In this document: piece after piece, positions 41,707-64,000 of the stretch
Layout of the letters: each line of letters begins with the position of its first letter
Position numbering within the stretch: the stretch's first letter is position 1
Sequence record: NC_031047.1
From: Escherichia phage HY03
Reading direction: 5' to 3' (one strand)
Length of the DNA: 64,000 bases
Notes under the pieces: model-generated
Database searches by the model: none
Seen by the model: only the letters and a program-made list of their open reading frames with translations
What the model was told of the DNA's origin: nothing
Translations under genes and position numbers: made by a program

Positions 41707-41715
41707 AAGTTATCC

Positions 41716-43063: not shown

Positions 43064-43065
43064 TT

Positions 43066-45263: not shown

Positions 45264-45276
45264 GGGCTTCGGCCCT

Positions 45277-45519
45277 TTGGAGAAAAAGATGTTACTAGAA
45301 TTTAAACAATTTCTTTATGAAGCTTCTATTGATGAATTTATGGGTAAAATTGCCTCTTGCCAAACATTAGAAGGTCTAGAAGAACTTGAAGCTTATTACA
45401 AGAAAAGAGTTAAAGAAACTGAATTAAAAGATACTGATGACATCTCTGTGAGAGATGCTTTGGCAGGAAAAAGAGCTGAATTAGAAGATTCAGACGATGA
45501 AGTAGAAGAAAGCTTTTAA
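45277..45519 (+). CDS. uvsW.1: UvsW.1-like small acidic protein
   Basis: 80 aa; position downstream of uvsW (here separated from it by the HNH gene). Confidence 0.6.
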   Translation: MEKKMLLEFKQFLYEASIDEFMGKIASCQTLEGLEELEAYYKKRVKETELKDTDDISVRDALAGKRAELEDSDDEVEESF

Positions 45520-45574
45520 ATTAAAAAAGGCCCAACCAAAAAGGAAGGGCCAAAACTATAGACTAAAGGTCACA

Positions 45575-45805
45575 CTATAGCAAAAGTTGTGTTTCATTTA
45601 ATTGTTCTTCCGAACTTTCTGAAACTGGTAGTTCTTTAATGTAATTATAGCAAGGCCCAGGATGTACAGGACCTTTGTCTGTTTCAACAACCAATGCAGA
45701 ATCGATTGGAGTTTTACAGACAACACAAATCTTATCTGACATGATTGTCTCCTTTTGAATATAGTAATATTTATAAACCCATTTTAATCCGCATTTCTTG
45801 TACAC
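45575..45805 (-). CDS. hypothetical Cys-containing small protein
   Basis: ORF upstream of uvsY; CVVCKTP...PGPCYNY suggests a zinc-binding motif; start may be internal Met. Confidence 0.45.
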   Translation of the reverse strand: MYKKCGLKWVYKYYYIQKETIMSDKICVVCKTPIDSALVVETDKGPVHPGPCYNYIKELPVSESSEEQLNETQLLL

Positions 45806-45865
45806 GGATTAAGCAAGCTTCCATCTCTGCTAATAGTCGAAATACTTCTTTATAATCTGTCATAT

Positions 45866-46093
45866 TTACCCCATATCTCTCATATGCATATCAATGCCCA
45901 TATCTTTAGAATAAAAATATTCATCAAGATATCCGGCAAATTTTCCTTTAATATAAAGGACATCTTCACCACACGGGTGGTCGGCCAGGATACGAATATC
46001 CTGACGCTTAAGATTATGCTTTTTCATTAAGAATTGAATCTCAGTTTCAAATTCTTCTTCATAATTAAAAGCATCATCAATGCTATATCTCAT
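45866..46093 (-). CDS. hypothetical protein (75 aa)
   Basis: ORF immediately upstream of uvsY. Confidence 0.45.
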   Translation of the reverse strand: MRYSIDDAFNYEEEFETEIQFLMKKHNLKRQDIRILADHPCGEDVLYIKGKFAGYLDEYFYSKDMGIDMHMRDMG

Positions 46094-46506
46094 TATTTTC
46101 CAGCCTCAAATGCCCGCATGTCTTGAATATGCTTAATAGCAAATCCACGTGATTTAATAGCATCAAGAGCTCCGCTACAGAAATCTAATAAAATTCCCCA
46201 ATATTGTAATGAAGTATCAACCTTTAAAACATCCTTATCAGCTGATAGAACTGTCTTCATTTCTGATTTCTCGTAACGATCCATACTAAATTCATCACCA
46301 TCTCCTCGTCCCGAGTAGTAGTCTAATCTAGCTTTAAGAGCAACTTTTTTCTGTGCGTCAATTCTAAGCATTTCCTTTTTAATACTTGAATGCTTATTAA
46401 GCCATTTACTATATAACATCACATTATTAGCTGCTTCATACTGTAATTTAGTCGAATCTATAAACACATCTTTCTTCAATTCTTCTTGAAGATCTTCTAA
46501 TCTCAT
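46093..46506 (-). CDS. uvsY: UvsY recombination mediator
   Basis: 137 aa as T4 UvsY. Confidence 0.9.
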   Translation of the reverse strand: MRLEDLQEELKKDVFIDSTKLQYEAANNVMLYSKWLNKHSSIKKEMLRIDAQKKVALKARLDYYSGRGDGDEFSMDRYEKSEMKTVLSADKDVLKVDTSLQYWGILLDFCSGALDAIKSRGFAIKHIQDMRAFEAGK

Positions 46507-46572
46507 ATTGTTCTCTATTCAATTGTTATTGGATGGACTTAGATTCATTATACCACGTTTTAACGTGAAGCA

Positions 46573-46971
46573 TTATACCCTATTACTCGAAGCCAGTTGC
46601 AGTTTTATCTGCTCAATATCATCAGGGTTATCGATGACCGAAAAGCGTATTTCTACTATCAGAGTATAATCATCATAAACTGGTATCACATTAACTGATA
46701 ATTTATCAATACGTGGCTCATAGTTTCTTACTGCGCTTTCGATATTGCGCTCAACTGTGTCAGCAGTAAGAGGAGTCATATTTTCAAAAAGCTGGTCTGA
46801 TAAATCACATCCAAATTCAGGGTCAAACGGTCTTGAACCTTTTCTTGTTGTAATAATTCCCAAAAGACTGTTTTTAATTGACCTTAATCCAAGTGATCTG
46901 GAAACATCTTTGTTCCAATCCATTTTCATTTCCGGGTCAATATCAGAATAAAGCTTATTAATATTTGCCAT
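46573..46971 (-). CDS. 25: gp25 baseplate wedge / sheath initiator (LysM-like)
   Basis: 132 aa as T4 gp25. Confidence 0.9.
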   Translation of the reverse strand: MANINKLYSDIDPEMKMDWNKDVSRSLGLRSIKNSLLGIITTRKGSRPFDPEFGCDLSDQLFENMTPLTADTVERNIESAVRNYEPRIDKLSVNVIPVYDDYTLIVEIRFSVIDNPDDIEQIKLQLASSNRV

Positions 46972-47597
46972 TATAGTAACTCAAAGAACTCTTTGAGGCC
47001 TCTTATTACATGAGCATGGGTTTTTCCACACTCTGGACATTTAATTGGAACAGCCAAATAGACGGTAGGTTTTAAAAGCATATCTTTTATAGCTACAATA
47101 TCTGACTCTGTGATGATAGAATATAAATCTTCTAGTTCCTTTTCATTTAAGTCTTCAACTGGAATGCTTTCCCCGTTAGCATGAATCGTTTCTATGCATG
47201 ATACTATCATGTGGGCTATATTTTTATCATCAAAAATTTTAGGGTATCGGAATTTAATTTTAATGTCACCCAGTGTATACCAGAGGTCTTCTGGTGCATC
47301 TATTTGTGTATGTAATAGATTTATATGGGTTGGTATTTCAGTTCCACAGGTGCACTTCCAGGAGTTTTCGTGATTAACTTCGCCGAGAGAATGTGCCCAT
47401 AAATGAATCAACAATAGTTCTGATTCTTGGCGGTTTAAATCTTTTGCATTTGTGCAGTCTTTGATTAGCTTTTTAACAATTACTTCTACAGAACCATTAT
47501 TTTTGGCAGTAATAAGTTCTAGATATTCTTTAAGCGTGAATGCGCGACAATTGATTATTTTAGAACCAACTCTCACATCAAATTTGTATTCATACAT
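46971..47597 (-). CDS. 26: gp26 baseplate hub protein
   Basis: 208 aa as T4 gp26. Confidence 0.85.
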
Positions 47598-47622
47598 ATT
47601 TAGCTCCTTTATTTATCATATT

Positions 47623-47630
47623 TATAAATA
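47623..47630 (+). promoter_or_regulatory. T4 late promoter box TATAAATA
   Basis: TATAAATA upstream of gene 51. Confidence 0.45.
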
Positions 47631-47647
47631 GAATAAAAGGAGCATCT

Positions 47648-48397
47648 ATGGCAAACATTATTCGTTGTAAATTACCAGATGGTGTTCATCGTTTTAAACC
47701 ATTTACGGTAGAAGATTATCGAGATTTTTTGTTAGTTCGAAACGATATAGAACATCGGTCACCACAAGAACAAAAAGAAGTAATTGCTGATTTAATTGCT
47801 GATTATTTTGGAGACTATCCGAAGACTTGGCAACCATTTATATTTTTGCAGGTATTTGTAGGGTCGATAGGTAAAACTAAAGTACCGGTCACATTTGTAT
47901 GCCCAAAATGTAAAAAAGAAAAGACAGTTCCATTTGAAATATATCAAAAAGAATTAAAGGAACCTATTTTTGACGTAGCTAATGTTAGAATTAAATTAAA
48001 TTTTCCTTCTGAGTTTTATGAAAATAAAGCAAAGATGATTACTGAAAATATTCATTCTGTTCAAGTAGATGAAATATGGTATGATTGGAAGGAAATTAGT
48101 GAATCAAGTCAAATAGAACTTGTTGACGCCATTGAGATAGAAACATTAGAAAAAATTCTCGATGCAATGAATCCTATTAATTTAACACTGCATATGTCGT
48201 GTTGTAATAAGTATGTAAAAAAATACACTGATATAGTAGATGTGTTTAAGCTATTAGTTAACCCAGATGAAATATTTACTTTTTATCAAATTAATCACAC
48301 ACTTGTAAAAAGTAATTATAGCTTAAATTCAATAATGAAAATGATTCCTGCTGAGCGCGGATTCGTATTAAAACTGATTGAGAAGGATAAACAATAA
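47648..48397 (+). CDS. 51: gp51 baseplate hub assembly protein
   Basis: 249 aa as T4 gp51. Confidence 0.85.
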
Positions 48398-49572
48398 TGA
48401 GTATGTTGCAACGCCCCGGATATCCAAATCTCAGCGTTAAATTATTTGAGAGTTATGACGCTTGGAGTAATAATAGATTTGTTGAATTAGCTGCTACTAT
48501 TACCACATTAACTATGCGGGATTCTCTTTATGGTCGAAATGAAGGAATGCTACAGTTTTATGATTCTAAAAATATCCATACAAAAATGGATGGAAATGAA
48601 ATAATTCAGATTTCTGTAGCTAACGCAAACGATATTAATAATGTTAAAACACGAATTTATGGATGTAAGCATTTTTCTGTATCTGTAGATTCAAAGGGCG
48701 ATAACATCATTGCTATTGAATTGGGAACTATTCATTCCATAGAAAATCTTAAATTTGGCAGACCGTTTTTCTCTGATGCAGGTGAATCTATAAAAGAAAT
48801 GCTTGGTGTCATTTATCAAGACCGCACATTATTAACTCCAGCAATAAATGCTATAAATGCTTATGTTCCTGATATTCCATGGACTAGTACATTTGAAAAT
48901 TATTTGTCCTATGTAAGAGAAGTTGCTCTAGCTGTAGGAAGTGACAAATTTGTATTTGTGTGGCAAGACATCATGGGAGTTAACATGATGGATTATGATA
49001 TGATGATAAATCAAGAACCATATCCAATGATTGTAGGTGAGCCATCTTTAATAGGTCAATTCATCCAAGAATTAAAATATCCATTGGCATATGATTTTGT
49101 TTGGTTGACTAAATCAAACCCGCATAAACGTGATCCAATGAAAAATGCTACTATCTATGCTCATTCGTTTTTAGATTCTTCACTGCCAATGATTACTACA
49201 GGAAAGGGTGAAAACTCTATTGTAGTGTCAAGGTCAGGTGCTTATTCTGAAATGACTTATAGGAATGGATATGAAGAAGCTATTCGTCTTCAAACTATGG
49301 CGCAATATGACGGCTATGCTAAATGTTCTACTGTCGGTAATTTTAACTTGACACCTGGCGTTAAAATTATTTTTAATGATAGTAAAAACCAATTTAAAAC
49401 AGAATTTTACGTTGATGAAGTTATCCACGAATTATCCAATAATAATTCAGTAACTCATCTATATATGTTCACTAATGCAACGAAACTGGAAACAATAGAC
49501 CCAGTTAAGGTTAAAAATGAATTTAAATCTGATACTACCACTGAAGAAAGTAGTTCTTCCAATAAGCAATAA
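48397..49572 (+). CDS. 27: gp27 baseplate hub protein
   Basis: 391 aa as T4 gp27. Confidence 0.9.
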
Positions 49573-50050
49573 AGAAGTTTCTATTCCTAAAATGGGTCTT
49601 AAACACTATAACATTTTAAAAGATGTTAAAGGTCCTGATGAAAATTTAAAACTTTTGATCGATTCTATTTGTCCGAATTTGTCACCGGCAGAAGTTGATT
49701 TCGTTTCTATTCATTTATTGGAATTTAATGGAAAGATTAAATCTCGTAAAGAAATAGATGGTTATACTTATGACATTAATGATGTTTATGTGTGCCAAAG
49801 ATTAGAATTTCAATACCAAGGAAATACATTTTATTTTAGACCTCCTGGAAAATTTGAGCAATTTTTGACAGTAAGCGATATGTTATCTAAATGCTTGCTT
49901 AAGGTCAATGATGAAGTTAAAGAAATTAATTTTCTTGAGATGCCAGCATTTGTATTAAAATGGGCAAATGATATTTCTACAACTTTAGCAATTCCTGGCC
50001 CTAATGGTCCAATAACTGGAATTGGCAATATTATTGGATTATTTGAATGA
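49517..50050 (+). CDS. 28: gp28 baseplate hub distal protein
   Basis: 177 aa as T4 gp28. Confidence 0.85.
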
Positions 50051-51819
50051 AAAAGCCACAAGAAATGCAAACGATGCGTAGAAAAGTTATTTCAGATAAT
50101 AAACCAGTTCAGGAAGCGGCTAAATCCGCTTCTAATACTTTATCTGGACTTAACGATATATCTACGAAATTGGATGATGCTCAAGCTGCTTCTGAATTAA
50201 TTGCTCAAACTGTCGAAGAAAAATCGAATGAAATAATTGGAGCAATTGACAATGTAGAAAGCGCAGTGAGTGATACTACTGCTGGTTCTGAGTTAATTGC
50301 TGAAACTGTTGAAATTGGCAATAATATTAATAAAGAAATCGGCGAATCGCTCGGGAGCAAATTAGATAAATTAACAAGTTTACTAGAGCAAAAAATTCAG
50401 ACAGCTGGAATTCAACAGACTGGAACTAGTTTAGCCACGGTTGAAAGCGCTATTCCTGTTAAAGTTGTTGAGGACGATACAGCTGAATCTGTGGGTCCTT
50501 TATTACCGGCTCCTGAAGCAGTTAATAATGATCCTGATGCTGATTTTTTCCCTACCCCTCAGCCAGTTGAACCCAAACAAGAATCGCCAGAAGAAAAACA
50601 GAAAAAAGAAGCATTTAATTTAAAATTATCTCAAGCTTTAGATAAATTAACAAAGACTGTTGATTTTGGATTTAAAAAATCCATTTCAATTACTGATAAA
50701 ATATCAAGTATGCTATTTAAGTATACTGTCAGTGCTGCTATTGAAGCTGCTAAAATGGTTGCATTAATAATGGCTGTTGTTATTGGAATAGACCTACTGA
50801 TGGTTCATTTTAAATATTGGTCAGATAAATTTTCAAAAGCCTGGGATTTGTTTAGCACTGATTTTAAAACTTTTTCAAGCGAAACCGGAACTTGGGGTCC
50901 TTTATTACAGAGCATCTTTGAATCTATTGATGAAATTAAAAAGTTCTGGGAAGCTGGAGACTGGGGTGGATTGACAGTAGCTATTGTGGAAGGACTTGGA
51001 AGTGTTCTTTATAATTTAGGAGAACTTATTCAACTTGGAATGGCTAAATTATCAGCAGCAATTCTTCGAGTTATTCCTGGTATGAAGGATACCGCTGATG
51101 AAGTAGAAGGAAGAGCATTAGAAAATTTCCAAAATTCTACTGGAGCATCTCTCAATAAAGAAGACCAAGAAAAAGTAGCAAATTATCAAGATAAACGAAT
51201 GAATGACGATCTTGGTCCAATAGCAAAAGGATTAGATAAAATTGCTAATTGGAAAACCCGTGCATCTAACTGGATTCGTGGTGTTGATAATAAAGAAGCA
51301 TTGACAACCGATGAAGAACGCGCAGCAGAAGAAGAAAAATTAAAGCAACTTTCACCAGAAGAAAGAAAAAACGCTTTAATGAAGGCTAATGAAGCTCGTG
51401 CTGCGATGATTCGTTTTGAAAAATATGCCGATTCAGCTGATATGAGTAAAGACTCAACAGTTAAATCAATTGAAGCCGCTCATGAAGACCTTAAAAAACG
51501 GATGAATGACCCGGATTTAAATAATTCACCTGCAGTTAAAAAGGAGCTTGCTTCTAGATTTGCTAAAATTGATGCTACTTATCAAGAGCTTAAGAAAAAT
51601 CAACCTGAGGCCAAACCTGAAACTTCTGCTAAATCGCCAGAAGCAAAACAAGTCCAGGTAATAGAAAAGAACAAAGCGCAACAAGCTCCTGTTCAACAAG
51701 CATCTCCTTCAATCAATAATACTAATAATGTTATTAAGAAAAATACTGTCGTTCATAATATGACACCTGTTACGAGTACAACTGCTCCTGGTGTATTTGG
51801 CGCGACTGGAGTTAATTAA
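50047..51819 (+). CDS. 29: gp29 tail tape-measure / baseplate hub protein
   Basis: 590 aa as T4 gp29. Confidence 0.9.
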   Translation: MKKPQEMQTMRRKVISDNKPVQEAAKSASNTLSGLNDISTKLDDAQAASELIAQTVEEKSNEIIGAIDNVESAVSDTTAGSELIAETVEIGNNINKEIGESLGSKLDKLTSLLEQKIQTAGIQQTGTSLATVESAIPVKVVEDDTAESVGPLLPAPEAVNNDPDADFFPTPQPVEPKQESPEEKQKKEAFNLKLSQALDKLTKTVDFGFKKSISITDKISSMLFKYTVSAAIEAAKMVALIMAVVIGIDLLMVHFKYWSDKFSKAWDLFSTDFKTFSSETGTWGPLLQSIFESIDEIKKFWEAGDWGGLTVAIVEGLGSVLYNLGELIQLGMAKLSAAILRVIPGMKDTADEVEGRALENFQNSTGASLNKEDQEKVANYQDKRMNDDLGPIAKGLDKIANWKTRASNWIRGVDNKEALTTDEERAAEEEKLKQLSPEERKNALMKANEARAAMIRFEKYADSADMSKDSTVKSIEAAHEDLKKRMNDPDLNNSPAVKKELASRFAKIDATYQELKKNQPEAKPETSAKSPEAKQVQVIEKNKAQQAPVQQASPSINNTNNVIKKNTVVHNMTPVTSTTAPGVFGATGVN

Positions 51820-51827
51820 GGAATAAT

Positions 51828-52922
51828 ATGGCAATTGTTAAAGAAATAACTGCTGATTTAATTAAAAAGTCTGGCGAGACAATTTCAGCTGGACAGAGTA
51901 CTAAATCAGAAGTAGGAACTAAAACATACACAGCCCAGTTTCCAACTGGGCGTGCTAGTGGGAATGACACTACAGGGGACTTCCAGGTAACAGATCTATA
52001 TAAGAATGGATTATTATTTACTGCATACAATATGTCATCTAGGGATTCTGGAAGTCTCAGAACGATGAGATCTAACTACTCTTCTTCATCTTCTAGTATT
52101 TTACGTACAGCCAGAAACACTATCAGTAATACAGTATCAAAACTGTCAAATGGATTAATATCAGATAATAATTCAGGAACAATAAGTAAAGCCCCTGTTG
52201 CAAATATTCTTTTACCAAGATCTAAATCTGATGTTGATACATCATCACATAGATTTAATGATGTTCAAGAAAGTCTTATCAGCAGAGGCGGAGGTACTGC
52301 TACTGGTGTGCTAAGTAATATTGCTTCAACTGCAGTATTTGGGGCACTGGAAAGTATAACACAAGGTATAATGGCTGATAATAATGAGCAGATTTATACT
52401 ACAGCCAGAAGTATGTATGGTGGTGCTGAGAATAGAACTAAAGTGTTTACATGGGATTTGACTCCACGTTCAACAGAAGATTTAATGGCTATTATTAATA
52501 TCTATCAGTATTTTAACTATTTTTCTTATGGTGAAACGGGCAAATCTCAATATGCTGCTGAAATAAAGGGGTATTTAGATGATTGGTATCGTTCTACGTT
52601 AATTGAACCTTTATCTCCGGAAGACGCAGCTAAAAATAAAACACTATTTGAGAAAATGACATCGAGTTTAACTAACGTTTTAGTAGTTTCAAACCCGACA
52701 ATTTGGATGGTGAAAAACTTTGGTGCAACATCTAAGTTTGATGGAAAAACTGAAATATTTGGTCCATGCCAAATACAGAGCATCAGATTTGATAAAACAC
52801 CTAATGGTAACTTTAACGGATTAGCTATTGCTCCAAACCTCCCTAGTACATTTACTCTTGAGATTACTATGAGAGAAATTATCACGTTAAACCGTGCTTC
52901 TTTATATGCGGGGACTTTTTAA
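51828..52922 (+). CDS. 48: gp48 baseplate tail-tube junction protein
   Basis: 364 aa as T4 gp48. Confidence 0.9.
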   Translation: MAIVKEITADLIKKSGETISAGQSTKSEVGTKTYTAQFPTGRASGNDTTGDFQVTDLYKNGLLFTAYNMSSRDSGSLRTMRSNYSSSSSSILRTARNTISNTVSKLSNGLISDNNSGTISKAPVANILLPRSKSDVDTSSHRFNDVQESLISRGGGTATGVLSNIASTAVFGALESITQGIMADNNEQIYTTARSMYGGAENRTKVFTWDLTPRSTEDLMAIINIYQYFNYFSYGETGKSQYAAEIKGYLDDWYRSTLIEPLSPEDAAKNKTLFEKMTSSLTNVLVVSNPTIWMVKNFGATSKFDGKTEIFGPCQIQSIRFDKTPNGNFNGLAIAPNLPSTFTLEITMREIITLNRASLYAGTF

Positions 52923-53845
52923 TGTATTCTTTAGAGGAATTTAATAATCAAGCAATAAACGCAGATTTCCAACGTAATAATATGTTTAGCTGCGTTTTTG
53001 CGACAACTCCATCAACTAAAAGCTCTTCGTTGATAAGTTCAATTAGCAACTTTTCTTATAATAACTTGGGCTTAAATTCAGATTGGTTAGGATTGACTCA
53101 AGACGATATTAATCAGGGAATTACTACGCTAATTACTGCTGGCACACAAAAACTGATAAGAAAATCAGGGGTTAGTAAATATCTTATTGGTGCCATGAGT
53201 CAACGTACAGTTCAAAGCTTATTAGGCTCATTTACAGTTGGTACATATTTAATTGACTTCTTTAACATGGCATATAACTCATCTGGATTGATGATATACT
53301 CCGTAAAAATGCCAGAGAATAGATTATCCTATGAAACTGACTGGAACTATAATTCTCCTAATATTCGCATAACCGGAAGAGAATTAGACCCTTTGGTTAT
53401 TTCATTTAGAATGGATTCAGAAGCTTGTAACTATCGTGCAATGCAAGACTGGGTTAACTCCGTTCAAGACCCAGTAACTGGATTACGCGCTTTGCCGCAA
53501 GATGTCGAGGCAGATATTCAGGTTAATCTTCATTCTCGCAATGGATTGCCTCATACTGCGGTGATGTTCACCGGATGCATTCCAATATCAGTGAGCGCTC
53601 CTGAGTTATCATATGATGGAGATAACCAAATAACTACATTTGATGTTACTTTTGCGTATAGAGTGATGCAGGCTGGAGCGGTTGATAGGCAAGCTGCGCT
53701 TGAATGGCTTGAATCTGCTGCTATAAATGGTATTCAAAGCGTTCTCGGAAATAGTGGAGGTGTTACTGGACTATCTAATTCGCTTTCACGACTTAGTAGA
53801 CTAGGAGGAACCTCAGGAAGCATTTCAAATATTAGTATACTATGA
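52922..53845 (+). CDS. 54: gp54 baseplate tail-tube initiator
   Basis: 307-aa ORF (T4 gp54 about 320; start may be non-ATG upstream). Confidence 0.85.
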   Translation: MYSLEEFNNQAINADFQRNNMFSCVFATTPSTKSSSLISSISNFSYNNLGLNSDWLGLTQDDINQGITTLITAGTQKLIRKSGVSKYLIGAMSQRTVQSLLGSFTVGTYLIDFFNMAYNSSGLMIYSVKMPENRLSYETDWNYNSPNIRITGRELDPLVISFRMDSEACNYRAMQDWVNSVQDPVTGLRALPQDVEADIQVNLHSRNGLPHTAVMFTGCIPISVSAPELSYDGDNQITTFDVTFAYRVMQAGAVDRQAALEWLESAAINGIQSVLGNSGGVTGLSNSLSRLSRLGGTSGSISNISIL

Positions 53846-53893
53846 CAGGGATTGTCAATTCGCAGAGTAAAATATTAGGAGCAATATAACAAC

Positions 53894-53920
53894 GGGGACC
53901 TTTCGGTCCCCATATTTTTA
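53894..53920. terminator. bidirectional rho-independent terminator after gene 54
   Basis: Hairpin GGGGACC-TTTC-GGTCCCC followed by T-rich run. Confidence 0.6.
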
Positions 53921-54208
53921 TTTGCGGAATGAAATGAAAGCAGAAACTGAAGCAACTAAACTGTCTTCAATATAAACTTCAATTTTTACCGGAGCTTCTG
54001 ACTCAAATTTACCTGTTACTACACCCTGAAAAATACTTTCAGTCTGTTCTGGCTTTGAAAAATTTTCAGAAGGAAAAATTCCGAACTTTTTATCTGTTCC
54101 AAAAATTTTAATAAATTCATCGTAAACCGCTTCGTTAAAAGCATTATCAGCAGGAATAACGCCTTCAACTACAAGTTCTTGACCTAAAAAGCGTAAAGAA
54201 GATTTCAT
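53918..54208 (-). CDS. hypothetical protein (96 aa)
   Basis: Minus-strand ORF convergent with gene 54. Confidence 0.45.
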   Translation of the reverse strand: MKSSLRFLGQELVVEGVIPADNAFNEAVYDEFIKIFGTDKKFGIFPSENFSKPEQTESIFQGVVTGKFESEAPVKIEVYIEDSLVASVSAFISFRK

Positions 54209-54636
54209 TTTGTGTTCCTCATGTTATGTCAGTAAGACTACTATAACACAACACGAGGGACTTGTAAACTACATTTTGAACTTTTTAGTACGCGTAATAG
54301 GCATGCGTCGATTTTATACTGTTTCATTGTTTGAAGAGCAGTATCAAAAACAGCATTAATGACACCAATTGGATTTCCACCCAAGTTTTTAAGCTTAACT
54401 AATGATAGTTTCTAGTTTCTCATTAACACCTATCATTACGATATGCATCATTTTGTCGCCTGGTTTAACGTTTTATCTGTATCACCGCCAGAGGTGTATG
54501 TACAAAATCTAAATCCAGGAAGCACGCTTTCTTCGCCGGCTTGAATAGCAAAAATTTGTGGTATTTTATGCTTAGGATTTAAGTTAACAACCGGCGCCGA
54601 AGCGCCGTCAAATAATTATGTAATAAGTTCCATGAT

Positions 54637-55281
54637 TTATCCTTGAACGAACTTGTAAGGCATGTTTGCAATATCTATGCAAGACGCAATAATTCCAAGA
54701 GATGATTCTACTTTCTGTTTAACATTTGATGAAACAAATGATGCAAAGTCAACTCTGTCTTCTATTTCAATATCACCTGTCATTGCAACTACTTCACCAG
54801 TTTCCATTAGACGGTCACCGTCATAAATTACTGATTCGGTGAGTTCTTCCGTAGTCATAACTTCAGCTTGAATGAGTTTTGTATTATTAAATGTTGTTCC
54901 GTCATTATTAGAAGCATCAGTTATTTTATTAACTTTGACCATCAATCCACGTGGTAGAATAACTTCAGCTTCTGTTGCTATTCCGAGACTTCCTGGATAT
55001 ACAACATTAACTTTATGAGCTCCATCAATTGCCCATCCTATTTGAACTTTAACGTATTCAGGATTTTCTTTATACGCTCTTATTTCGTTTGGATTAATAG
55101 TTATTCCTTCTTCATTTTTATCAACTGTCAATTCATTACGAGCTTCTGGTTCTAAAAGACCGATACCAGCATGTGTAATTCCAAAACGTCCAAAAATGAT
55201 AGGAGTTAAAGAAGTAGATACAAAATTTCTGAAATAGAACACTTTATTTTTAACTAATGCTTCGTATATAGGAGCAGTCAA
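54637..55281 (-). CDS. ADP-ribosyltransferase-like protein, apparently N-terminally truncated (Alt/Mod-like)
   Basis: 214-aa ORF from a TTG start; STS motif (FVSTSLTP) and E-x-E (TEAEV) about 90 aa later, but no upstream Arg-motif region; in-frame stop 5 codons upstream. Confidence 0.4.
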   Translation of the reverse strand: MTAPIYEALVKNKVFYFRNFVSTSLTPIIFGRFGITHAGIGLLEPEARNELTVDKNEEGITINPNEIRAYKENPEYVKVQIGWAIDGAHKVNVVYPGSLGIATEAEVILPRGLMVKVNKITDASNNDGTTFNNTKLIQAEVMTTEELTESVIYDGDRLMETGEVVAMTGDIEIEDRVDFASFVSSNVKQKVESSLGIIASCIDIANMPYKFVQG

Positions 55282-55282
55282 T

Positions 55283-55633
55283 ATGAAAGGTAATGTTTAT
55301 TTAGTAGTTCATGATTTAACATTCTATTTTAATCATAATGATACTGTTATTTCTGAACGTGTAATTAATTTGCTTTATCAGCATGCAGATTATGTTTATG
55401 TCGAAAACGAATATGGTCATTGGCAATTTCTCAAAAATCGTTCATTTGGTTTAGATGGTTACGAATATTTTGATCGTAAAGACCTTTTAGATACAATTCC
55501 GTTATCTACACAATATCAAAATCATAAGTCTTTACATAAATGCCGGCTAATTCGAAATGCTGAATCCGCGTATGAAGCAATTGATTTATGGCGTAAACGC
55601 CGTGAACAGATTGATGCTTTAAAAGAATATTAA
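55283..55633 (+). CDS. hypothetical protein (116 aa)
   Basis: ORF with Shine-Dalgarno GGAG before ATG; begins at the synteny breakpoint. Confidence 0.5.
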   Translation: MKGNVYLVVHDLTFYFNHNDTVISERVINLLYQHADYVYVENEYGHWQFLKNRSFGLDGYEYFDRKDLLDTIPLSTQYQNHKSLHKCRLIRNAESAYEAIDLWRKRREQIDALKEY

Positions 55634-55639
55634 GAAACC

Positions 55640-55995
55640 GGGTCGCTACCGGTAAGTCGTCGGACTGATGTTCCCTGGAGTATAGTTTCCTCCCACAGTT
55701 TTACTGTGTTCTGGCTCTTTACTATTACAGCAGAAACGGCGCACCGAATTATCGATTCGAGGAAATATCTTTGCCATAAGCCGAGTAGCGTTTTTGACGG
55801 AACGTTCGGATATGGTCGAGATATGGCCTTTTAAAAATATTGAGTAGCGTCAACTACTTAATAACCGGGTTCAAATCCCGGCGTTTCGTACAAACACTTG
55901 CCTTAGCAGGTGGAACCCCGACAAGGTTGCCGCAAGGCTTAGCCCTGACCGAAAGGTTGGGGCTTTTTAGTTTGAATCACTCAGAGAATGCTGTT
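55640..55995 (+). ncRNA. candidate structured small-RNA locus
   Basis: About 400 bp with no ORF of 60 aa or more; tRNA-like T-arm CCGGG-TTCAAAT-CCCGG (55864-55880); terminal hairpin CCCTGACC-GAAA-GGTTGGGG plus T-run (55951-55976). Confidence 0.25.
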
Positions 55996-56043
55996 ACGGA
56001 TAATAAATAATTAATAACCAATAAATTATTTCAAGGATTTTAA

Positions 56044-56607
56044 ATGAAAACCTATGCCGAATTTTTAACTGAAGCAGCAAAATTACCATCTGAAGCAGAT
56101 CTTACTAAAGTATTCTTCCACTTGGACCCAAAAGACCGGGGCGATTTTCTTAAGTGGAAAGCTAAAGCTATTGAAATGTATAACATCGATAACAGTTCTT
56201 TTACGATGAGCCAAGAAAATAGTTTCAATAAAGCATTTTTCAAAATTTCTAAGAAATTGGCATCTGGCGCTCAGGTTTCTAAATCTGCATTAGCTACTCC
56301 TGAACGTGCACCTGTTAAAATTTCTAAGAATATGTTTGACACTAAAAAATATGTCAATGCTTTGAATAAAGCTCTTGATGCATTGGATGATGCAAAGAAG
56401 GCAGCCCGCGATCTTCAAGACGTGTATACCGATTTTGATCGTAAAACTAAAGGTTCTATTTCAAATAGCGAACGCAATAGTGTAAGTGTTTATTCTGATA
56501 GCCTTGATGTTCTTGGCGATGCATATACTGAAATTAAAAATCGTATTAACACCGCATCTAAGCTAAAAGCTGCTGCAGAAGCTATAATAACTAAACTAGG
56601 TAAATAA
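56044..56607 (+). CDS. internal-protein-like capsid-targeted protein
   Basis: 187 aa; N-terminal MKTYAEFLTE|A matches the T4 capsid targeting sequence cleaved by gp21. Confidence 0.6.
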   Translation: MKTYAEFLTEAAKLPSEADLTKVFFHLDPKDRGDFLKWKAKAIEMYNIDNSSFTMSQENSFNKAFFKISKKLASGAQVSKSALATPERAPVKISKNMFDTKKYVNALNKALDALDDAKKAARDLQDVYTDFDRKTKGSISNSERNSVSVYSDSLDVLGDAYTEIKNRINTASKLKAAAEAIITKLGK

Positions 56608-56615
56608 TTTTAAAT

Positions 56616-56640
56616 CCCTATCTAAATGATAGGGCTTTTT
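56616..56640 (+). terminator. rho-independent terminator
   Basis: Hairpin CCCTATC-TAAATG-ATAGGG followed by CTTTTT. Confidence 0.55.
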
Positions 56641-56762
56641 GGTATCTAGGCCTTTCCGGGCCTCTCTAGGCATCATTTAGTTTATATCCTTTATAATATA
56701 TTATCCTACCTTTTAATTGCCCCTCCCCGCCCTAAAATTCCCTAAAAATTTTTCACAAAACT

Positions 56763-56792
56763 GTTTACATCCCTGTTCTTCTATGGTACTAT
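56763..56792 (+). promoter_or_regulatory. T4 early-type promoter
   Basis: -35 GTTTAC, 18-bp spacer, -10 TACTAT, upstream of ORF 56836. Confidence 0.55.
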
Positions 56793-56835
56793 ATCAATAT
56801 CAACTACTGATACAGAAAACAACTTGGAGAATAAA

Positions 56836-57099
56836 ATGGATAATTACGGTGAACTGTTCAACTTCTTTATGAAATGTGTTTCAGAAGATTTCGGTCGTAC
56901 AGTGAATGATATTAAAGTTATCGGTCCTGATCATCCGATGTTTGAAACTTACGCAGTAATGGGTAATGAAGATGGTCAGTGGTATACTGTAAAGGTTGTG
57001 ATTAACATGTTCACTGCTGAAGGTTATGTTAAACTGTCTTCTAAAGTTTACCATGATAACGATGAAATCGCAGAAGAATATTTCAATAATATGAAATAA
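56836..57099 (+). CDS. hypothetical protein
   Basis: ORF 56824..57099; ATG at 56836 preceded by GGAGA. Confidence 0.5.
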   Translation: MDNYGELFNFFMKCVSEDFGRTVNDIKVIGPDHPMFETYAVMGNEDGQWYTVKVVINMFTAEGYVKLSSKVYHDNDEIAEEYFNNMK

Positions 57100-57167
57100 T
57101 TGTGTACAAACACCAAGGACGGTGTTATTATAGACTTATCAAAACAAATACAGAAACGGAGAAATAA

Positions 57168-57332
57168 ATGACTACTTTAATTATTTGGTTTGACGAAAAT
57201 GAAGAAACATACTGCGTGAACATTGGCGAAAGCCCAATGCCAGAATTTGAATCTTCGGATAAAAACTCGGTTGTATCTTGGGCTGAAGGTTATAAAGCAG
57301 CAAAAGGCGATGTTGAAATAGTTTACAAATAA
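57168..57332 (+). CDS. small hypothetical protein (54 aa)
   Basis: Below the 60-aa cutoff of the ORF track; ATG preceded by ACGGAGAAATAA; fills an otherwise empty 270-bp gap. Confidence 0.4.
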   Translation: MTTLIIWFDENEETYCVNIGESPMPEFESSDKNSVVSWAEGYKAAKGDVEIVYK

Positions 57333-57375
57333 TACTCTTATGGATTTTAAATCTTAATTAACCTAAGGAAATACT

Positions 57376-57969
57376 ATGAACACACTGAAGAAAATTGTTG
57401 AGTTTATTCGCACTAAACTTGGTTCTGCTATGGCTAAAAATTTATCCGTTGAAGAACAGTATACTGCTGCGGCAGCAAAACTACTTGATAAGATTAAAGA
57501 TCTAAAAACTGCTTCTGTTAAATCTATTAATGAAGAAAAGCGTATTCGTGAACTTATTGTCGAAAAGAATAAGCAGGCCGAATCAAAAGAGCGTGAAATT
57601 CGCAAGCTTCTTTCTGAAGGTCAAGATGTAACAATGCATGCTAAACTTGGTTTGCTATATCGTCGAACAGCTGAACAGTTGACTACTAAAGCTGATGGTT
57701 ATGCTGAAATGCGAATTGAAATCGCCAAGAAAGTAGTTGAGTTAGATGATGCTCGCCAAGAACTTGCAGTTAAATTGGAATATATCCGTGAAACTCGTGC
57801 AGCAAATGCCCTTGGAATTAGTACTGCTGATGATGTAGTTGAAATTGCAGCGCTGACTAAGGTTGATATTGAAGATACTCTTGCTCGAGTTGAAACCTTT
57901 AATGGTAATATTTCTGGGGTTGAAACTACCTCTGCCGATGTTCAGGAATACATTAATTCTCTGAAATAA
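57376..57969 (+). CDS. hypothetical coiled-coil protein (197 aa)
   Basis: Lys/Glu-rich helical sequence; hairpin GGGGCTTAGGCCCC downstream. Confidence 0.5.
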
Positions 57970-58010
57970 TGATAAGGGGCTTAGGCCCCTATTACTTGGA
58001 GTAAATAGGA

Positions 58011-58619
58011 ATGAAAATGCAAAGTGATTTCAATTCAATGTTTGAAGAGTTCCAAAGACAGGTTGATGTTCCAGACCAATTGCTAAATGCTCTTAAACGC
58101 ATGGCAGAAGGACGTAATTATTATTGGGGTTCTTCATATGAAACAGACGAAAGCCTTTCTGGAAGATTTTCCAGAGGTAAAAAGTCTTTAATACGTCCTG
58201 GAATACTTATTAACAGTATTGAATCAATTTATTCATTGACATGCGATTTTGATGTTGAATTTACTGATTTCATTTCTCCTGAATGGACAGTTTGTTATTT
58301 AAACGACGATTTTGATTATCTCGGTGTTTATAGTTTAAGTGACGCATGGTTTAAACGTAACTTACAAAAGTCAAATTTATTCTATATTGATACTACAGTA
58401 AAATTTCAGGGAAAGAAATATTTCTTTACTCTTATAGTTGATTCTGAAACGAAGCATGAAAATAAACGTATTCTTAGTAAAAGAAATATCTTGAATATTG
58501 TTGATGATCTTTTTGATAAATTAGTGGAAAATCCTAATTTTGAAAGTGATTTATTACTAGAAAAATTTGTTAAGGAATGTAGAGAATATGTCAAAACCAT
58601 CACTATACCTTCCAAGTAA
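58011..58619 (+). CDS. hypothetical protein (202 aa)
   Basis: First of four consecutive ORFs sharing a C-terminal F-x-x-E-C-R-K/E motif. Confidence 0.5.
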   Translation: MKMQSDFNSMFEEFQRQVDVPDQLLNALKRMAEGRNYYWGSSYETDESLSGRFSRGKKSLIRPGILINSIESIYSLTCDFDVEFTDFISPEWTVCYLNDDFDYLGVYSLSDAWFKRNLQKSNLFYIDTTVKFQGKKYFFTLIVDSETKHENKRILSKRNILNIVDDLFDKLVENPNFESDLLLEKFVKECREYVKTITIPSK

Positions 58620-58980
58620 ACCGTTGAAGTATGAATTAAAGCGTCAGATAATTTCTACTGATGTATTAATAGGTCCTGTTATACTTATATCATTTGTAAT
58701 TCTATTGATTATTGGAGGTGTTTTAGATGTTATGACTGATATTGATTCTGGCGAAATACTTGTGTTAATGCTAATTCTTCCATTAATAGTTCCATTTTTA
58801 TTAGTACCTATAAATTGGGTAGGATACTGGTATCAAGGAAGGCATTATCGTAAACGTGTACGTGATTGGAAAGCACAGTGTAAAAAGATTAAAAAGGAAC
58901 ACCAGCTTAAACTTGCTGCGTATGAATTTGATGAAATTATGAAATTTGTTAAGGAATCACGATGCAAAAGCCAAAACTAA
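58588..58980 (+). CDS. small membrane protein (two predicted TM helices)
   Basis: ORF 58567..58980; probable start MSKPSLY with RBS; hydrophobic stretches VILISFVILLIIGGVL and ILVLMLILPLIVPFLLVPI. Confidence 0.5.
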   Translation: MSKPSLYLPSKPLKYELKRQIISTDVLIGPVILISFVILLIIGGVLDVMTDIDSGEILVLMLILPLIVPFLLVPINWVGYWYQGRHYRKRVRDWKAQCKKIKKEHQLKLAAYEFDEIMKFVKESRCKSQN

Positions 58981-59324
58981 ATAAAGTCAAATATTCGCTT
59001 CCTGAGTCATTTTTAATTTTTGCTGTGGCGTTGGCTGCAGCTCTTGCAGGTAGTATTTTTGGATTGTTAATTGACTGTCTTATTTTAAACATCGACGACA
59101 CAGTAAATATAACAGAAGTTTGGAGTGAGCTTTGTTATACTAAAATTATTTCATTGTTTTCATTCTTTGGTACAATGTTATATTTTCATTATGATAATTT
59201 TAAAATAAATTGGCAAAGAAAAAAGGATTACAAAATACAATTAAAAGAATATAACAACTACGTGTCTTATATTGAAAAAGAATCAATGGAAGAGTTTGTG
59301 AGTGATTGTAGGAAAATCAAATGA
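58962..59324 (+). CDS. small membrane protein
   Basis: 120 aa; hydrophobic N-terminal segments; C-terminal ...EEFVSDCRKIK. Confidence 0.5.
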   Translation: MQKPKLNKVKYSLPESFLIFAVALAAALAGSIFGLLIDCLILNIDDTVNITEVWSELCYTKIISLFSFFGTMLYFHYDNFKINWQRKKDYKIQLKEYNNYVSYIEKESMEEFVSDCRKIK

Positions 59325-59809
59325 TTTTAAAAACTCGCTGGTATGATTTAGATGATGGGGATGATGGCATTTCAGTTGATAGAGTTGATTGGAATGGTTG
59401 TTCCGAAGATACAAAGAAACGATTAATTAGGGAGTTTAGAATGGGATATCAAGCAGCTAAACCATTTACTGTAACAGATGATAAATTCGTGTGTATTCAA
59501 AATGGTCGCGCTAAGTTAACGAATGCCGATTGGTTCACAGATAAGAAGGTTATTCTGTGGTATATCATTAGTCTTCCTATATCATCGTTCGTATTTTACT
59601 TTTTTATAAAAAATCCAATGGACAGAATAGGAGATTGGGTTCTTTTAACTATACTTGTTAATATTTTTACAGCAGCAGTATTATCAGGAATATGGCGTAT
59701 GTTCATTGAAATGCCATGGCGTTTACGCAGACAGCAAAAGATTTTTGATGAAAAGAAATATGCTCAAAATTTAAATAACTTTATCACTGAATGCAGGAAA
59801 TTAAAATGA
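59321..59809 (+). CDS. small membrane protein
   Basis: 162 aa; two hydrophobic segments; C-terminal ...NFITECRKLK. Confidence 0.5.
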   Translation: MILKTRWYDLDDGDDGISVDRVDWNGCSEDTKKRLIREFRMGYQAAKPFTVTDDKFVCIQNGRAKLTNADWFTDKKVILWYIISLPISSFVFYFFIKNPMDRIGDWVLLTILVNIFTAAVLSGIWRMFIEMPWRLRRQQKIFDEKKYAQNLNNFITECRKLK

Positions 59810-60246
59810 AAACATTATCAGCTGGTATTATCTTCATGACAGAAGATAAAGATTTATTTATGGGTCGGGTTACTGGTTCTCGTAAGCCTGGAATGATGGC
59901 ACATCGCTGGGATATTCCAAAGGGACGTGTAGAAAGTTCTGATTTGAATGCACTGGAAGCTGCAAAAAGAGAATGCTTAGAAGAGACCGGTTTTAGCAAT
60001 TATAATCCAGACCTTCTAGAAGACCTAGGTGTATTTAAATATTCTAGTAATAAAGACTTACAGTTATTTTATTATACGATTCCAGTAGAGCATGAGATGT
60101 TTAGAAATTGCCATTGTGAGTCTTATTTTGAAAATAAAGATGGTGTTATGATTCCAGAGATGGACGCTTTTGCTCTTATTCCTCGTACTCAGTGGCAATA
60201 TGTGATGGGTCCTTCACTTTACCGAATAATGAACAACCTCTTTTAA
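59791..60246 (+). CDS. nudE: Nudix hydrolase NudE (e.1)
   Basis: 151 aa; Nudix box GRVESSDLNALEAAKRECLEETGF; directly upstream of lysozyme gene. Confidence 0.8.
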   Translation: MQEIKMKTLSAGIIFMTEDKDLFMGRVTGSRKPGMMAHRWDIPKGRVESSDLNALEAAKRECLEETGFSNYNPDLLEDLGVFKYSSNKDLQLFYYTIPVEHEMFRNCHCESYFENKDGVMIPEMDAFALIPRTQWQYVMGPSLYRIMNNLF

Positions 60247-60777
<531 letters not shown>

Positions 60778-60781
60778 AGCT

Positions 60782-60811
60782 GTTTACTTTCTCTTAGAAT
60801 TGTGATAGTAT
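60782..60811 (+). promoter_or_regulatory. T4 early-type promoter
   Basis: -35 GTTTAC, 18-bp spacer, -10 TAGTAT, upstream of ORF 60871. Confidence 0.5.
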
Positions 60812-60870
60812 ATTCACAGTTACTTGAATAGACAATTACCAATTAAAATATTTACATTTAAAGGAAACAC

Positions 60871-61344
60871 ATGAAAACATATCAAGAATTTATTACTGAA
60901 GCAGCTATTAATTCTCAAATTATTGCTGAATCTTTTACTGATCTTTTGAAATTTAAAAAAGGACAGAAAATCACTGCTGTATTGGATGATGGTACAGAAG
61001 TTGAGATGGATGTACAGGGATATAATTATGCAGTAGATGGAAAACTGTATAATAAATCTCATGCTAAATTTGATTCATTTGACGACTTTGTTAATACAGT
61101 TGAAGATGAAAAAACTCGTCGATCCATTGCAACTGGTGATGCTAAGGTTCTTATGGCACATGGTCATGAACGCATTCGCGCTAAACAGAATAAAATGGGT
61201 GAAGATAATTTTGCATTAGTTGGTTATCAATCTGGTAAGCAAACTTATGGCTATCAGCGTACTGCTACCATGTATAATAAAAATGGTAAAATCGCTTTCG
61301 TGAATAGTAAAGGTTCTATTCAGTACGTTAAATCGTTCAAATAA
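60871..61344 (+). CDS. internal protein (ipII/ipIII position) with capsid targeting sequence
   Basis: 157 aa; N-terminal MKTYQEFITE|A is the T4 internal-protein targeting signal; lies beside gene e. Confidence 0.65.
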   Translation: MKTYQEFITEAAINSQIIAESFTDLLKFKKGQKITAVLDDGTEVEMDVQGYNYAVDGKLYNKSHAKFDSFDDFVNTVEDEKTRRSIATGDAKVLMAHGHERIRAKQNKMGEDNFALVGYQSGKQTYGYQRTATMYNKNGKIAFVNSKGSIQYVKSFK

Positions 61345-61485
61345 TATGGGAACAACCTGGACCTCATGATTCTGTGAGGGATTCCCGCCAACCTGTAATA
61401 AGGTCGAGCCCAAGTGCGGTAATGGGTAAATACAGAAATGGACAATTCATGCGCCATGGAATGGCCCAAACCTAGAGAGAACAAA

Positions 61486-62025
61486 ATGAGAACATTTTTA
61501 ACTGGTCCTTATCTATCCCTGATGAATGCTTTTACACACCATTCTGATGCTAGAGTAGAAGAAATTTGTAAAAACGATTATATCCCGCCATTTGAAGACT
61601 TACTTAAGCAGTATTGCACACTTCGACTAGATGGTGGACGTCAATCCGGTAAATCAACTGCAGTAACTAATTTTGCCGCTAATTGGTTGTATGACGGTGG
61701 AACAGTTATTGTTCTTTCTAATACTTCAGCTTACGCTAAAATTTCTGCAAATAGCATCAAAAAGGAATTTTTGCGTTATTCTAATGATGATATACGTTTT
61801 CGTTTATTTACTGATTCTGTGCGCAGTTTTATCGGTAATAAAGGAAGCAAGTTCAGAGGTTTAAAGCTTTCGCGAATTTTGTATATAATTGATGAGCCTG
61901 TCAAATCTCCTGATATGGATAAGATTTATAGTGTCCATATTGACACTGTACACTGCTGCTGTAATATTAAATGTTGTATTGGTGGTATTACTCGTCCACA
62001 GTTTTTCGTAATCGGAATGCAATGA
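61486..62025 (+). CDS. hypothetical P-loop NTPase-like protein
   Basis: ORF 61438..62025; Walker A-like GGRQSGKST and Walker B-like ILYIIDEP; start probably MRTFLT. Confidence 0.45.
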   Translation: MRTFLTGPYLSLMNAFTHHSDARVEEICKNDYIPPFEDLLKQYCTLRLDGGRQSGKSTAVTNFAANWLYDGGTVIVLSNTSAYAKISANSIKKEFLRYSNDDIRFRLFTDSVRSFIGNKGSKFRGLKLSRILYIIDEPVKSPDMDKIYSVHIDTVHCCCNIKCCIGGITRPQFFVIGMQ

Positions 62026-62351
62026 TGACAGACACTCAGCTTTTCGAATATCTTTATTTTTCGCCAAAAACTATTAAAAATAAATTAGTGAATCATTTTG
62101 AAATTTTGGCAAATAACAACGTCTTGAGCGAATTTTATCCTAAGCAATACAAATTACAAAAAGGCGTATTCAAAGGATGCAGAGTTTTGTGTACTGCTCC
62201 TAATGCACGGCTAATGAATAAAATTCCATATTTTACCATGGAATTTATTGATGGGCCTTTTAAAGGACTAATCACCCAAAGTTTAATGGCATATGATTCT
62301 GAGCCATTTTTAATTAAAGAACAATCTTGGATAAATTTATTTTCTAATTGA
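62022..62351 (+). CDS. hypothetical protein
   Basis: ORF 61971..62351; likely start at ATGATG overlapping the upstream stop (ATGA). Confidence 0.45.
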
Positions 62352-62358
62352 GGTTTAT

Positions 62359-62721
62359 ATGAAAGCATATCAAATTCTTGAAGGCACACATAAAGGTACT
62401 ATTTATTTTGAAGATGGTATTCAAGCACGAATTATCGTTTCTAAAACCTTTAAAGAGGACTCTTTTGTAGACCCAGAAATTTTCTACGGTTTGCATGCCC
62501 GTGAAATTGAAATTGAGCAACAGCCTACAGTTAAAATTGAAGGTGGTCAACACCTGAACGTTAACGTTCTGCGTCGTGAAACTCTGGAAGATGCAGTTAA
62601 GCATCCGGAAAAATATCCGCAGCTGACCATCCGTGTATCCGGTTATGCAGTTCGCTTTAACTCTCTGACTCCGGAACAGCAGCGCGACGTTATCGCTCGT
62701 ACCTTCACCGAGAGTTTGTAA
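62359..62721 (+). CDS. autonomous glycyl-radical cofactor (GrcA/YfiD-like)
   Basis: 120 aa; C-terminal ~60 aa [60 protein letters not shown] matches E. coli GrcA with RVSGY glycyl-radical motif; host-like codon usage in the 3' half. Confidence 0.75.
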
Positions 62722-62942
62722 TGGCAAAGATAATTATTGAAGGTTCTGAAGATGTGCTAAATGCTTTCGCCGAATGGTTTAGTAATTCAGGCGAACAGCA
62801 ATTTAACGAAGCATGGAACATGGGTGATATTGATGGAATTTATCCCACGACAGAAATTTCTGTTCAAGGATATGGAATTCATGAGCCTATTCGTTTAGTT
62901 GAATATGATTTAGGTACTGGTGAGGAAGTAAAATATGATTGA
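62721..62942 (+). CDS. hypothetical small acidic protein (73 aa)
   Basis: Tightly packed early ORF. Confidence 0.45.
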   Translation: MAKIIIEGSEDVLNAFAEWFSNSGEQQFNEAWNMGDIDGIYPTTEISVQGYGIHEPIRLVEYDLGTGEEVKYD

Positions 62943-63201
62943 AGATATTAAGGGTTATAAGCCACATACTGAAGAGAAAATCGGTAAAGTGAATGCTATT
63001 AAAGACGCTGAAGTTCGTTTAGGACTTATCTTTGATGCTTTATACGATGAATTCTGGGAAGCACTAGATAATTGTGAAGACTGTGAATTCGCGAAGAATT
63101 ATGCTGAAAGCCTCGATCAGTTAACTATTGCTAAAACGAAACTCAAAGAAGCCAGTATGTGGGCTTGCCGTGCTGTGTTCCAACCAGAGGAAAAATACTA
63201 A
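62935..63201 (+). CDS. hypothetical small protein (88 aa)
   Basis: Tightly packed early ORF, two ORFs upstream of regB (vs.4-like position). Confidence 0.45.
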
Positions 63202-63479
63202 TGGCTCAATTAAGCGCAGGGTTTGGTTATGAGTATTATACTGCCCCTCGTCGTGTATCTGTTGCTCCTAAGAAAATTCAAAGTCTTGATGACTTCCAGG
63301 AAGTAGTTCGTAACGCTTTCCAGGACTATGCACGTTATCTTAAAGAAGATTCACAGGACTGTCTCGAAGAAGATGAAATTGCTTACTATGAGCAGCGTCT
63401 TGAACAGCTCAAAAATCTACATGAGGTTCGTGCAGAAGTTTCAAAGTCTATGAATAAATTGGTCAGATTTAAAGAATAA
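63159..63479 (+). CDS. hypothetical small protein (106 aa)
   Basis: Early ORF adjacent to regB. Confidence 0.45.
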
Positions 63480-63481
63480 CT

Positions 63482-63511
63482 GTTTACTTTTCCTCTTGAC
63501 TGTGGTATAAT
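63482..63511 (+). promoter_or_regulatory. T4 early-type promoter upstream of regB
   Basis: -35 GTTTAC, 18-bp spacer, -10 TATAAT, then GAGGAG RBS. Confidence 0.6.
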
Positions 63512-63538
63512 TTTTCTATCAGTTAAGAGGAGAATAAC

Positions 63539-64000
63539 ATGACTATCAACACAGAAGTTTTTATTCGTCGAAATAAGCTCCGTCGTCACTTTGAGTCGGA
63601 GTTTCGTCAAATTAACAATGAGATTCGTGAGGCATCAAAAGCAGCAGGGGTCTCATCGTTTCATCTAAAATATTCTCAACATCTTCTTGATCGCGCAATT
63701 CAACGGGAGATTGATGAGACATACGTTTTTGAATTATTCCATAAAATAAAAGACCATGTTTTAGAAGTTAATGAATTCCTGAGTATGCCTCCGCGTCCTG
63801 ACATTGACGAGGATTTTATTGATGGGGTTGAATATCGTCCTGGACGTTTAGAAATCACAGATGGAAATCTTTGGCTTGGATTTACAGTTTGTAAACCTAA
63901 CGAGAAGTTCAAAAACCCGTCACTTCAATGTAGGATGGCAATTATCAACAGTCGTCGTTTACCAGGAAAGGCTTCTAAAGCAGTAATTAAAACTCAATGA
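63539..64000 (+). CDS. regB: RegB endoribonuclease
   Basis: 153 aa as T4 RegB (MTINTEVFIRRNKLRR...); identification from memory. Confidence 0.6.
   Translation: MTINTEVFIRRNKLRRHFESEFRQINNEIREASKAAGVSSFHLKYSQHLLDRAIQREIDETYVFELFHKIKDHVLEVNEFLSMPPRPDIDEDFIDGVEYRPGRLEITDGNLWLGFTVCKPNEKFKNPSLQCRMAIINSRRLPGKASKAVIKTQ

Follow-up and report, generated by a model that had tools for sequence, protein, structure and literature searches.

The complete genomes in the phage collection that lie closest to the DNA described here are those of Escherichia phage JEP6 (MT764206) and Salmonella phage SG1 ('Tequatrovirus sgallinarium'), which together with T4 (NC_000866) represent the canonical organization of the T-even phages (Tequatrovirus). 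In T4, gene 54 has alt.-3 as its usual neighbour, and the e/regB module lies beyond the transfer RNA (tRNA) cluster on the strand opposite to genes 48 and 54, a layout that had been given correctly in a first reading made from the letters alone (the sequence-only reading). The stretch analysed here, hereafter the window, is made up of the first 64,000 nucleotides of the sequence deposited in GenBank for Escherichia phage HY03 under KR269718.1. It is a Tequatrovirus sequence, and within each of two blocks its gene content and gene order are those of the canonical genomes. However, it differs from them in how the two blocks are oriented to each other, in an alt gene that is cut so that its last 214 codons are left, and in the lack of 9-10 nucleotides that the canonical genomes have between the tRNA-Arg gene and the open reading frame (ORF) named ORF116. 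The blocks meet between positions 55280 and 55281. This join is very probably an artefact of record assembly, with two pieces set in the wrong relative orientation, and not a biological inversion.

The block structure was obtained from blastn comparisons of the window with T4 (60-126 kb) and JEP6, and from tblastn searches with 74 T4 proteins, using the T4 annotation of NC_000866. Exactly two blocks are collinear with T4 and JEP6, and they are mutually inverted (Table 1). On JEP6, block A runs from 144158 across the record origin to 27994 on the plus strand, while block B runs from 144148 to 135372 on the opposite strand, with a match that includes window position 55280. Window positions 82-54966 are collinear with T4 71247-123777 on the plus strand, which bears out the earlier claim that the gene order follows T4 as far as gene 54. 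By tblastn, block A carries the tRNA cluster with segB and trna.2-4, followed by ipI, 57B/A, 1, 3, 2, 4, 53, 5, then 24 through 29, 48, 54, alt.-3, alt.-2, alt.-1 and the terminal part of alt. Block B carries ORF116, the rnaD/rnaC homologues, a 187-residue ORF (ORF187), e.8, e.6-e.2, nudE, e, an IpIV-like protein gene, vs.8-vs.6, further vs genes down to vs.3, and regB. A plus-strand block with nudE, e, internal-protein-like genes and regB had been placed from about 55283 onwards, and both this gene set and the minus-strand match to T4 71168-62279 agree with that placement. Identity to JEP6 is alike in the two blocks, mostly 96-98%, and the window shares with the JEP6 lineage an HNH gene replacing tRNA-Gln, segB, an ORF116 that follows tRNA-Arg, a gene 17 in two pieces and a gp54 with a short C-terminus. 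Taken by itself, each block has the sequence of an unremarkable Tequatrovirus of the JEP6/SG1 lineage.

The junction itself is blunt. Megablast matches from the left stop at 55280 and those from the right start at 55280, one nucleotide being ambiguous (the A at 55280 is common to both flanks), and no repeat is present. The mutual inversion of the flanks and a breakpoint at about 55.28 kb, both anticipated by the sequence-only reading, are thereby located to the base. The same reading had put the loss of synteny directly after gene 54; the break is real, but collinearity runs on for about 1.4 kb through alt.-3 and alt.-2/-1 and into alt. No phage record spans the junction (0 of 761 and 0 of 590 matching records by megablast), an exact 46-mer over it has no match in IMG/VR, the GTDB genomes or the JGI metagenomes, and all ten contigs with an identical ORF116 are canonical at this place (0 of 10 carry the junction). 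The flanking inverted repeats that had been envisaged are found at neither site. Neither direct nor inverted repeats link the two break sites; the longest common strings, 10-12 nucleotides, lie away from the breakpoints (8-11 in shuffled controls), and in the inverted orientation within 300 nucleotides on either side the longest is 12 nucleotides, again off the breakpoints (shuffled, 8-11). We had also considered a repeat-mediated inversion and a repeat-induced assembly ambiguity, and both are ruled out, as the two sites have no common sequence. There is no invertase near the junction among gene 54, alt.-3/-2/-1, alt, ORF116 and ORF187.

On the left flank, the break falls inside alt. The truncated ORF noted there as similar to ADP-ribosyltransferases (ARTs) proved to be the 3' end of this gene: it covers only positions 102-195 of the 196 of PF03496 (ADP-ribosyltransferase), that is, the C-terminal half, and aligns at 97-99% identity to the last 644 nucleotides of JEP6 alt (27351-27994 of 27351-29444). 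The JEP6 gene comprises 2094 nucleotides, or 697 codons, and runs on uninterrupted past the site of the break, and alt is unbroken over this site in 351 of 354 phage records. The ORF at 54637-55281 does not hold a complete ART domain in a protein of about 680-700 residues. When its six alternative starts were looked up as exact proteins, five were unrecorded, and the 73-residue version occurs only in short ENA contigs. The 96-residue minus-strand ORF reported next to it is indeed present and, from its identity to the T4 protein and its Pfam family, is alt.-3. The title of the earlier note, which had alt replaced by the e/regB module, is therefore mistaken, since the 3' third of alt and three small downstream genes remain.

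On the right flank, block B begins 2-3 nucleotides ahead of the ATG of ORF116. This ORF, to which no Pfam family was matched, lies directly after tRNA-Arg in JEP6, VEc20 and ten independent contigs with an identical ORF116, all of which read ...CGACCAATTATA-AGTGAGGAAA-ATATG... from one into the other, and the passage from tRNA-Arg to ORF116 is unbroken in 279 of 503 phage records. Window positions 1-100, when reverse-complemented, terminate exactly at ...CGACCAATTATA. Window bases 1 and 55281 are thus 9-10 nucleotides apart (AGTGAGGAA[A]) in VEc20, JEP6 and the ten contigs; TTCCTCACT, the reverse complement of AGTGAGGAA, gives the nucleotides missing at the contact between tRNA-Arg and ORF116. 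ORF116 here is without its native Shine-Dalgarno sequence (GAGG), which falls in the absent 9-10 nucleotides. Given that bases 1 and 55281 are near-neighbours in the canonical genomes, the apparent inversion has its reciprocal breakpoint where the window starts. This breakpoint, which the sequence-only reading had proposed to locate by alignment to T-even genomes, is window base 1 and no internal junction. Of the two novel junctions that an inversion would place inside the sequence, only that at 55280/55281 is internal. The record ends together make up the second 'breakpoint', and a single aberrant junction is all that the deposit asserts. The chance that the window would start so near a reciprocal breakpoint is about 1 in 10^4.

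The numbering of the record leads to the same boundaries. Exact-protein look-ups tie the window proteins to Escherichia phage HY03 entries; the exact gp54 sequence is on record for HY03 only (AKJ72727.1). Contigs that encode an identical fibritin (wac) reach 97.3-99.0% identity, and the window does not derive from any of them. HY03 is listed as KR269718.1, with 170,770 bp, in a published BLAST table (PMC10253784). HY03_0001-0004 lie at window 87-2691, and since the locus tags are numbered from HY03_0001 at the window start, the boundary of block A is the record start. The HY03 protein series found so far comprises 268 proteins. In this series regB is AKJ72748.1, 30.1 is AKJ72930.1 and alt.1 is AKJ72932.1 (HY03_0291, the highest tag seen), and the numbering of alt.1 relative to regB makes the record end the other block boundary. 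The record would thus descend beyond the window in T4 order to 30.1, 30 and alt.1, the last of these at or near the record end and adjoining the missing 5' part of alt. The block boundaries accordingly appear to coincide with the record ends, gene 0001 at one and alt.1 at the other. Across the junction, the accessions are consecutive in window order (gp54, AKJ72727; alt.-3, AKJ72728; ORF116, AKJ72730; ORF187, AKJ72731), so that the annotated deposit already has the aberrant order. The probable orientation error was apparently carried into RefSeq, given that BI016_gp locus tags turned up in the protein look-ups.

When one block is flipped, T4 order is restored at the tRNA-Arg/ORF116 contact: the re-flipped join, composed of the reverse complement of window 1-700 and window 55281-55980, matches 25 phage records without interruption, at 96.7% identity in the case of JEP6. 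From the numbering, the same flip should also restore the order at alt. The record is therefore best pictured as two blocks that tile one normal, T4-ordered and circularly permuted genome, block A reaching from tRNA-Arg to the middle of alt, and block B running from ORF116 backwards via e and regB to gene 30 and alt.1, where it would end with the 5' part of alt. Most simply, a pair of contigs, or the parts of a single contig that had been cut and re-pasted, would have been concatenated with one of them reverse-complemented, presumably in a manual or an assembler step. Such a concatenation would give one aberrant internal join, the other contact falling at the ends of the linear record, and about 9 nucleotides would have been lost at the tRNA-Arg/ORF116 contact. 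Scaffolding and finishing misjoins are alike in these respects: they have one aberrant internal junction with the other breakpoint at the record ends, a blunt, homology-free join, few lost bases, and an order that one flip restores. The sequence-only reading had left the choice between a large inversion and a chimeric or misassembled join. The misjoin is now strongly favoured and the inversion is not, because the second junction coincides with the record ends, which a true inversion does not explain.

Several observations weigh on the other side. Apart from the join the sequence is clean, frameshifts are few, and the assembly is not an obviously poor one. No gap, Ns or linker marks the join, and the assembly history is undocumented; in both respects the case departs from known misjoins, and the cause is one that we infer. 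The blunt join, the 1-nucleotide microhomology and the loss of 9 nucleotides would also be expected from illegitimate recombination. The record terminus is placed inside alt through the protein and locus-tag numbering, and the misjoin was called from sequence comparisons and this numbering. Separately, poor assembly quality was considered as a supporting argument and set aside as weak, because there are few real frameshifts and most of the indels relative to JEP6 are alignment noise in divergent stretches.

Among the other explanations, a chimera of two co-assembled T4-like phages, or a mixed population whose contigs were broken at points of heterogeneity and joined arbitrarily, ranks slightly ahead, although we consider it very unlikely. 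The break by tRNA-Arg is the point at which two tRNA-Arg/segB types converge (T4/JEP6 versus VEc20, 83% identical), and such a convergence point would branch the assembly graph of a mixed sample. However, both blocks are about equally near to JEP6 and SG1, mostly at 96-98%, and in the window they tile one genome without overlap or duplication, and nothing in it calls for two sources. A chimera of this kind would in any case still be an assembly artefact and no feature of a genome.

A genuine inversion of about 55.3 kb in HY03, extending from tRNA-Arg through gene 54 to the 3' part of alt and arising by illegitimate, non-homologous rejoining, is very unlikely. It would have truncated alt and broken the tRNA operon at the contact of tRNA-Arg with ORF116/rnaD/rnaC, and the record would have to have been linearised at the second junction by happenstance or through a mixed population. 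The clean, blunt junction with its single nucleotide of microhomology suits such an event, as does the similar distance of both blocks from JEP6, and all of the essential late genes of block A are intact. Moreover, alt and the distal tRNA operon are dispensable in T4, and these are the two places that the inversion would hit. Nevertheless, it would require the second junction to fall exactly at the record start and end, the coincidence of about 1 in 10^4 given above, and its junction occurs in no other Tequatrovirus record or contig searched. Inverted repeats and a recombinase, which are usual though not obligatory, are missing from the sites, and ORF116 would lose its ribosome-binding site and rnaD/rnaC their operon promoter. 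The invertible G segment of Mu with Gin and the C segment of P1 with Cin resemble the present case in having a DNA block in the opposite orientation, and in nothing more. Those segments are 3-4 kb long, flanked by inverted repeats and adjoined by a serine invertase gene, whereas the HY03 block is 55 kb long, with neither inverted repeats at its sites nor an adjoining invertase. A search of the literature on inversions in Tequatrovirus or T4-related phages, and on HY03, returned nothing relevant; its 'inversion' matches were laboratory mixing steps, and HY03 was named only in the BLAST table cited above.

An origin of the join downstream of the deposit, absent from the public record, is hardly credible: it has no direct support, being raised only by the window ending exactly on the regB stop codon, and the GenBank accessions and locus tags are consecutive across the junction.

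Table 1. Blocks, junction and annotated features of the HY03 window (window coordinates)
Feature	Position	Strand	Basis or identifier
Block A	1..55280	+	T4 71247 to ~124.1 kb, + strand (blastn)
Block B	55281..64000	+	T4 71168 to 62279, opposite strand (blastn)
Aberrant junction, ...GGAGCAGTCA / ATATGAAAGG...	55280..55281		megablast edges and direct sequence comparison
Record start: TATAAT, then tRNA-Arg (7-83)	1..83	-	ARAGORN
segB	87-752		AKJ72665.1; exact sequence in HY03 only
trna.2	2017-2304		AKJ72667.1, HY03_0003
trna.3	2311-2691		HY03_0004
Gene 54 (baseplate-tail tube initiator), 307 residues	52922..53845	+	97% identity to T4 gp54 residues 1-306
alt.-3, 96 residues, DUF5498	53918..54208	-	99% identity to T4 alt.-3; Pfam; AKJ72728.1, HY03_0067
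alt.-2/alt.-1 remnants (old partial alt duplicate)	54244..54633	-	tblastn
alt 3' fragment, last 214 codons, cut off at junction	54637..55280	-	ORF called 54637-55281
ORF116, hypothetical protein	55283..55633	+	HY03_0070, AKJ72730.1
rnaD/rnaC homologues (T4 stable RNAs)	55633..55971	+	90% identity to T4 71168-70827
ORF187	56044-56607		AKJ72731.1, HY03_0071
e.3	58962-59324		HY03_0078
IpIV-like protein	60871-61344		HY03_0082

Several further features of the window lie on either side of the junction. The C-terminus of gp54 stops early (window 53842-53917), giving 307 residues as compared to 320-321 in T4 and most relatives; this 3' stretch has no frame-shifting indel relative to JEP6 DNA, and JEP6 has an equal spacing up to alt.-3. 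The rnaD/rnaC homologues form the distal end of the tRNA operon, and a terminator scan placed a terminator-like hairpin at 55941-55964. An Rfam scan of 54000-57200 gave no match, T4 rnaC and rnaD being without an Rfam family, and a promoter scan around the junction gave no excess over the shuffled expectation. The products of 56044-56607 and 60871-61344 open with a common N-terminal motif (MKTYAEFLTEAA and MKTYQEFITEAA), which may resemble the capsid-targeting sequence of T4 internal proteins. The latter product belongs to DUF7412 and is called IpIV in some records. T4 ipII, ipIII and denV were not found in the window by tblastn of the T4 proteins. The window finishes at base 64000 with the final nucleotide of the regB stop codon (T4 62279), probably by chance.

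Gene 17, encoding the large terminase, is interrupted at codon 257 and occupies two ORFs (26087-28939), the extra ends of which look like an atypically split intein. The N-terminal piece continues after ...IYIDE with about 40 extra residues, and the C-terminal piece starts with about 107 extra residues that end in ...VESHN before CAFIP. This C-terminal extension matches CatC of an engineered 'consensus atypical split intein' (PDB 6DSL_B, E = 3e-12). Between the two pieces lies a 199-residue TnsA-like/endonuclease ORF (26967-27566, PF08722), in a 'fractured gene' arrangement. The insertion in gene 17 is present in 15 of 521 matching phage records, including those of JEP6, SG1 and pSe_SNUABM_01.

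A 210-residue minus-strand ORF at 1298-1930, with a weak, sub-threshold HNH match, is annotated as a homing endonuclease in JEP6. It lies directly after tRNA-Leu at the place of tRNA-Gln in T4, an arrangement that is alike in JEP6, and no tRNA-Gln is among the seven tRNAs found in the window by ARAGORN. Free-standing ORFs of the homing-endonuclease type, absent from T4 at these places, also occur at 5409-6083 (between genes 3 and 2), 30951-31607 (18/19) and 44571-45263 (uvsW/uvsW.1). JEP6 likewise lacks the first two, for which the protein collection has no exact match; the third has the very sequence of a homing endonuclease annotated in HY03 and in several other phages. In rnlB (RNA ligase 2), a 1-nucleotide deletion relative to JEP6 at about 39643-39654 puts the two parts of the gene in different frames, the N-terminus of vs.8 is frame-shifted at about 61470-61480, and the list of indels against JEP6 includes a 7-nucleotide tandem duplication (TAGTTTC) in alt.-2 at about 54406. 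These apparent frameshifts in non-essential genes could be real or could be sequencing errors.

A misjoin in the record would have consequences for comparative work. When HY03 is included in whole-genome alignments, synteny plots or pangenome graphs, these will display a 55-kb inversion that is spurious, together with an alt gene cut short, and automated scans will go on flagging the join. The finding carries little biological weight, since it is most likely an orientation error in a public record. Were the inversion true, a phage that in other respects has about 97% identity to collinear T-even phages would have its late structural block reversed with respect to the early regions. This would be an unusual large inversion in Tequatrovirus, a genus whose gene order did not vary among the several hundred phage records compared, and it would offer a natural experiment on whether it matters how the late block is oriented towards the early regions and the replication origins.

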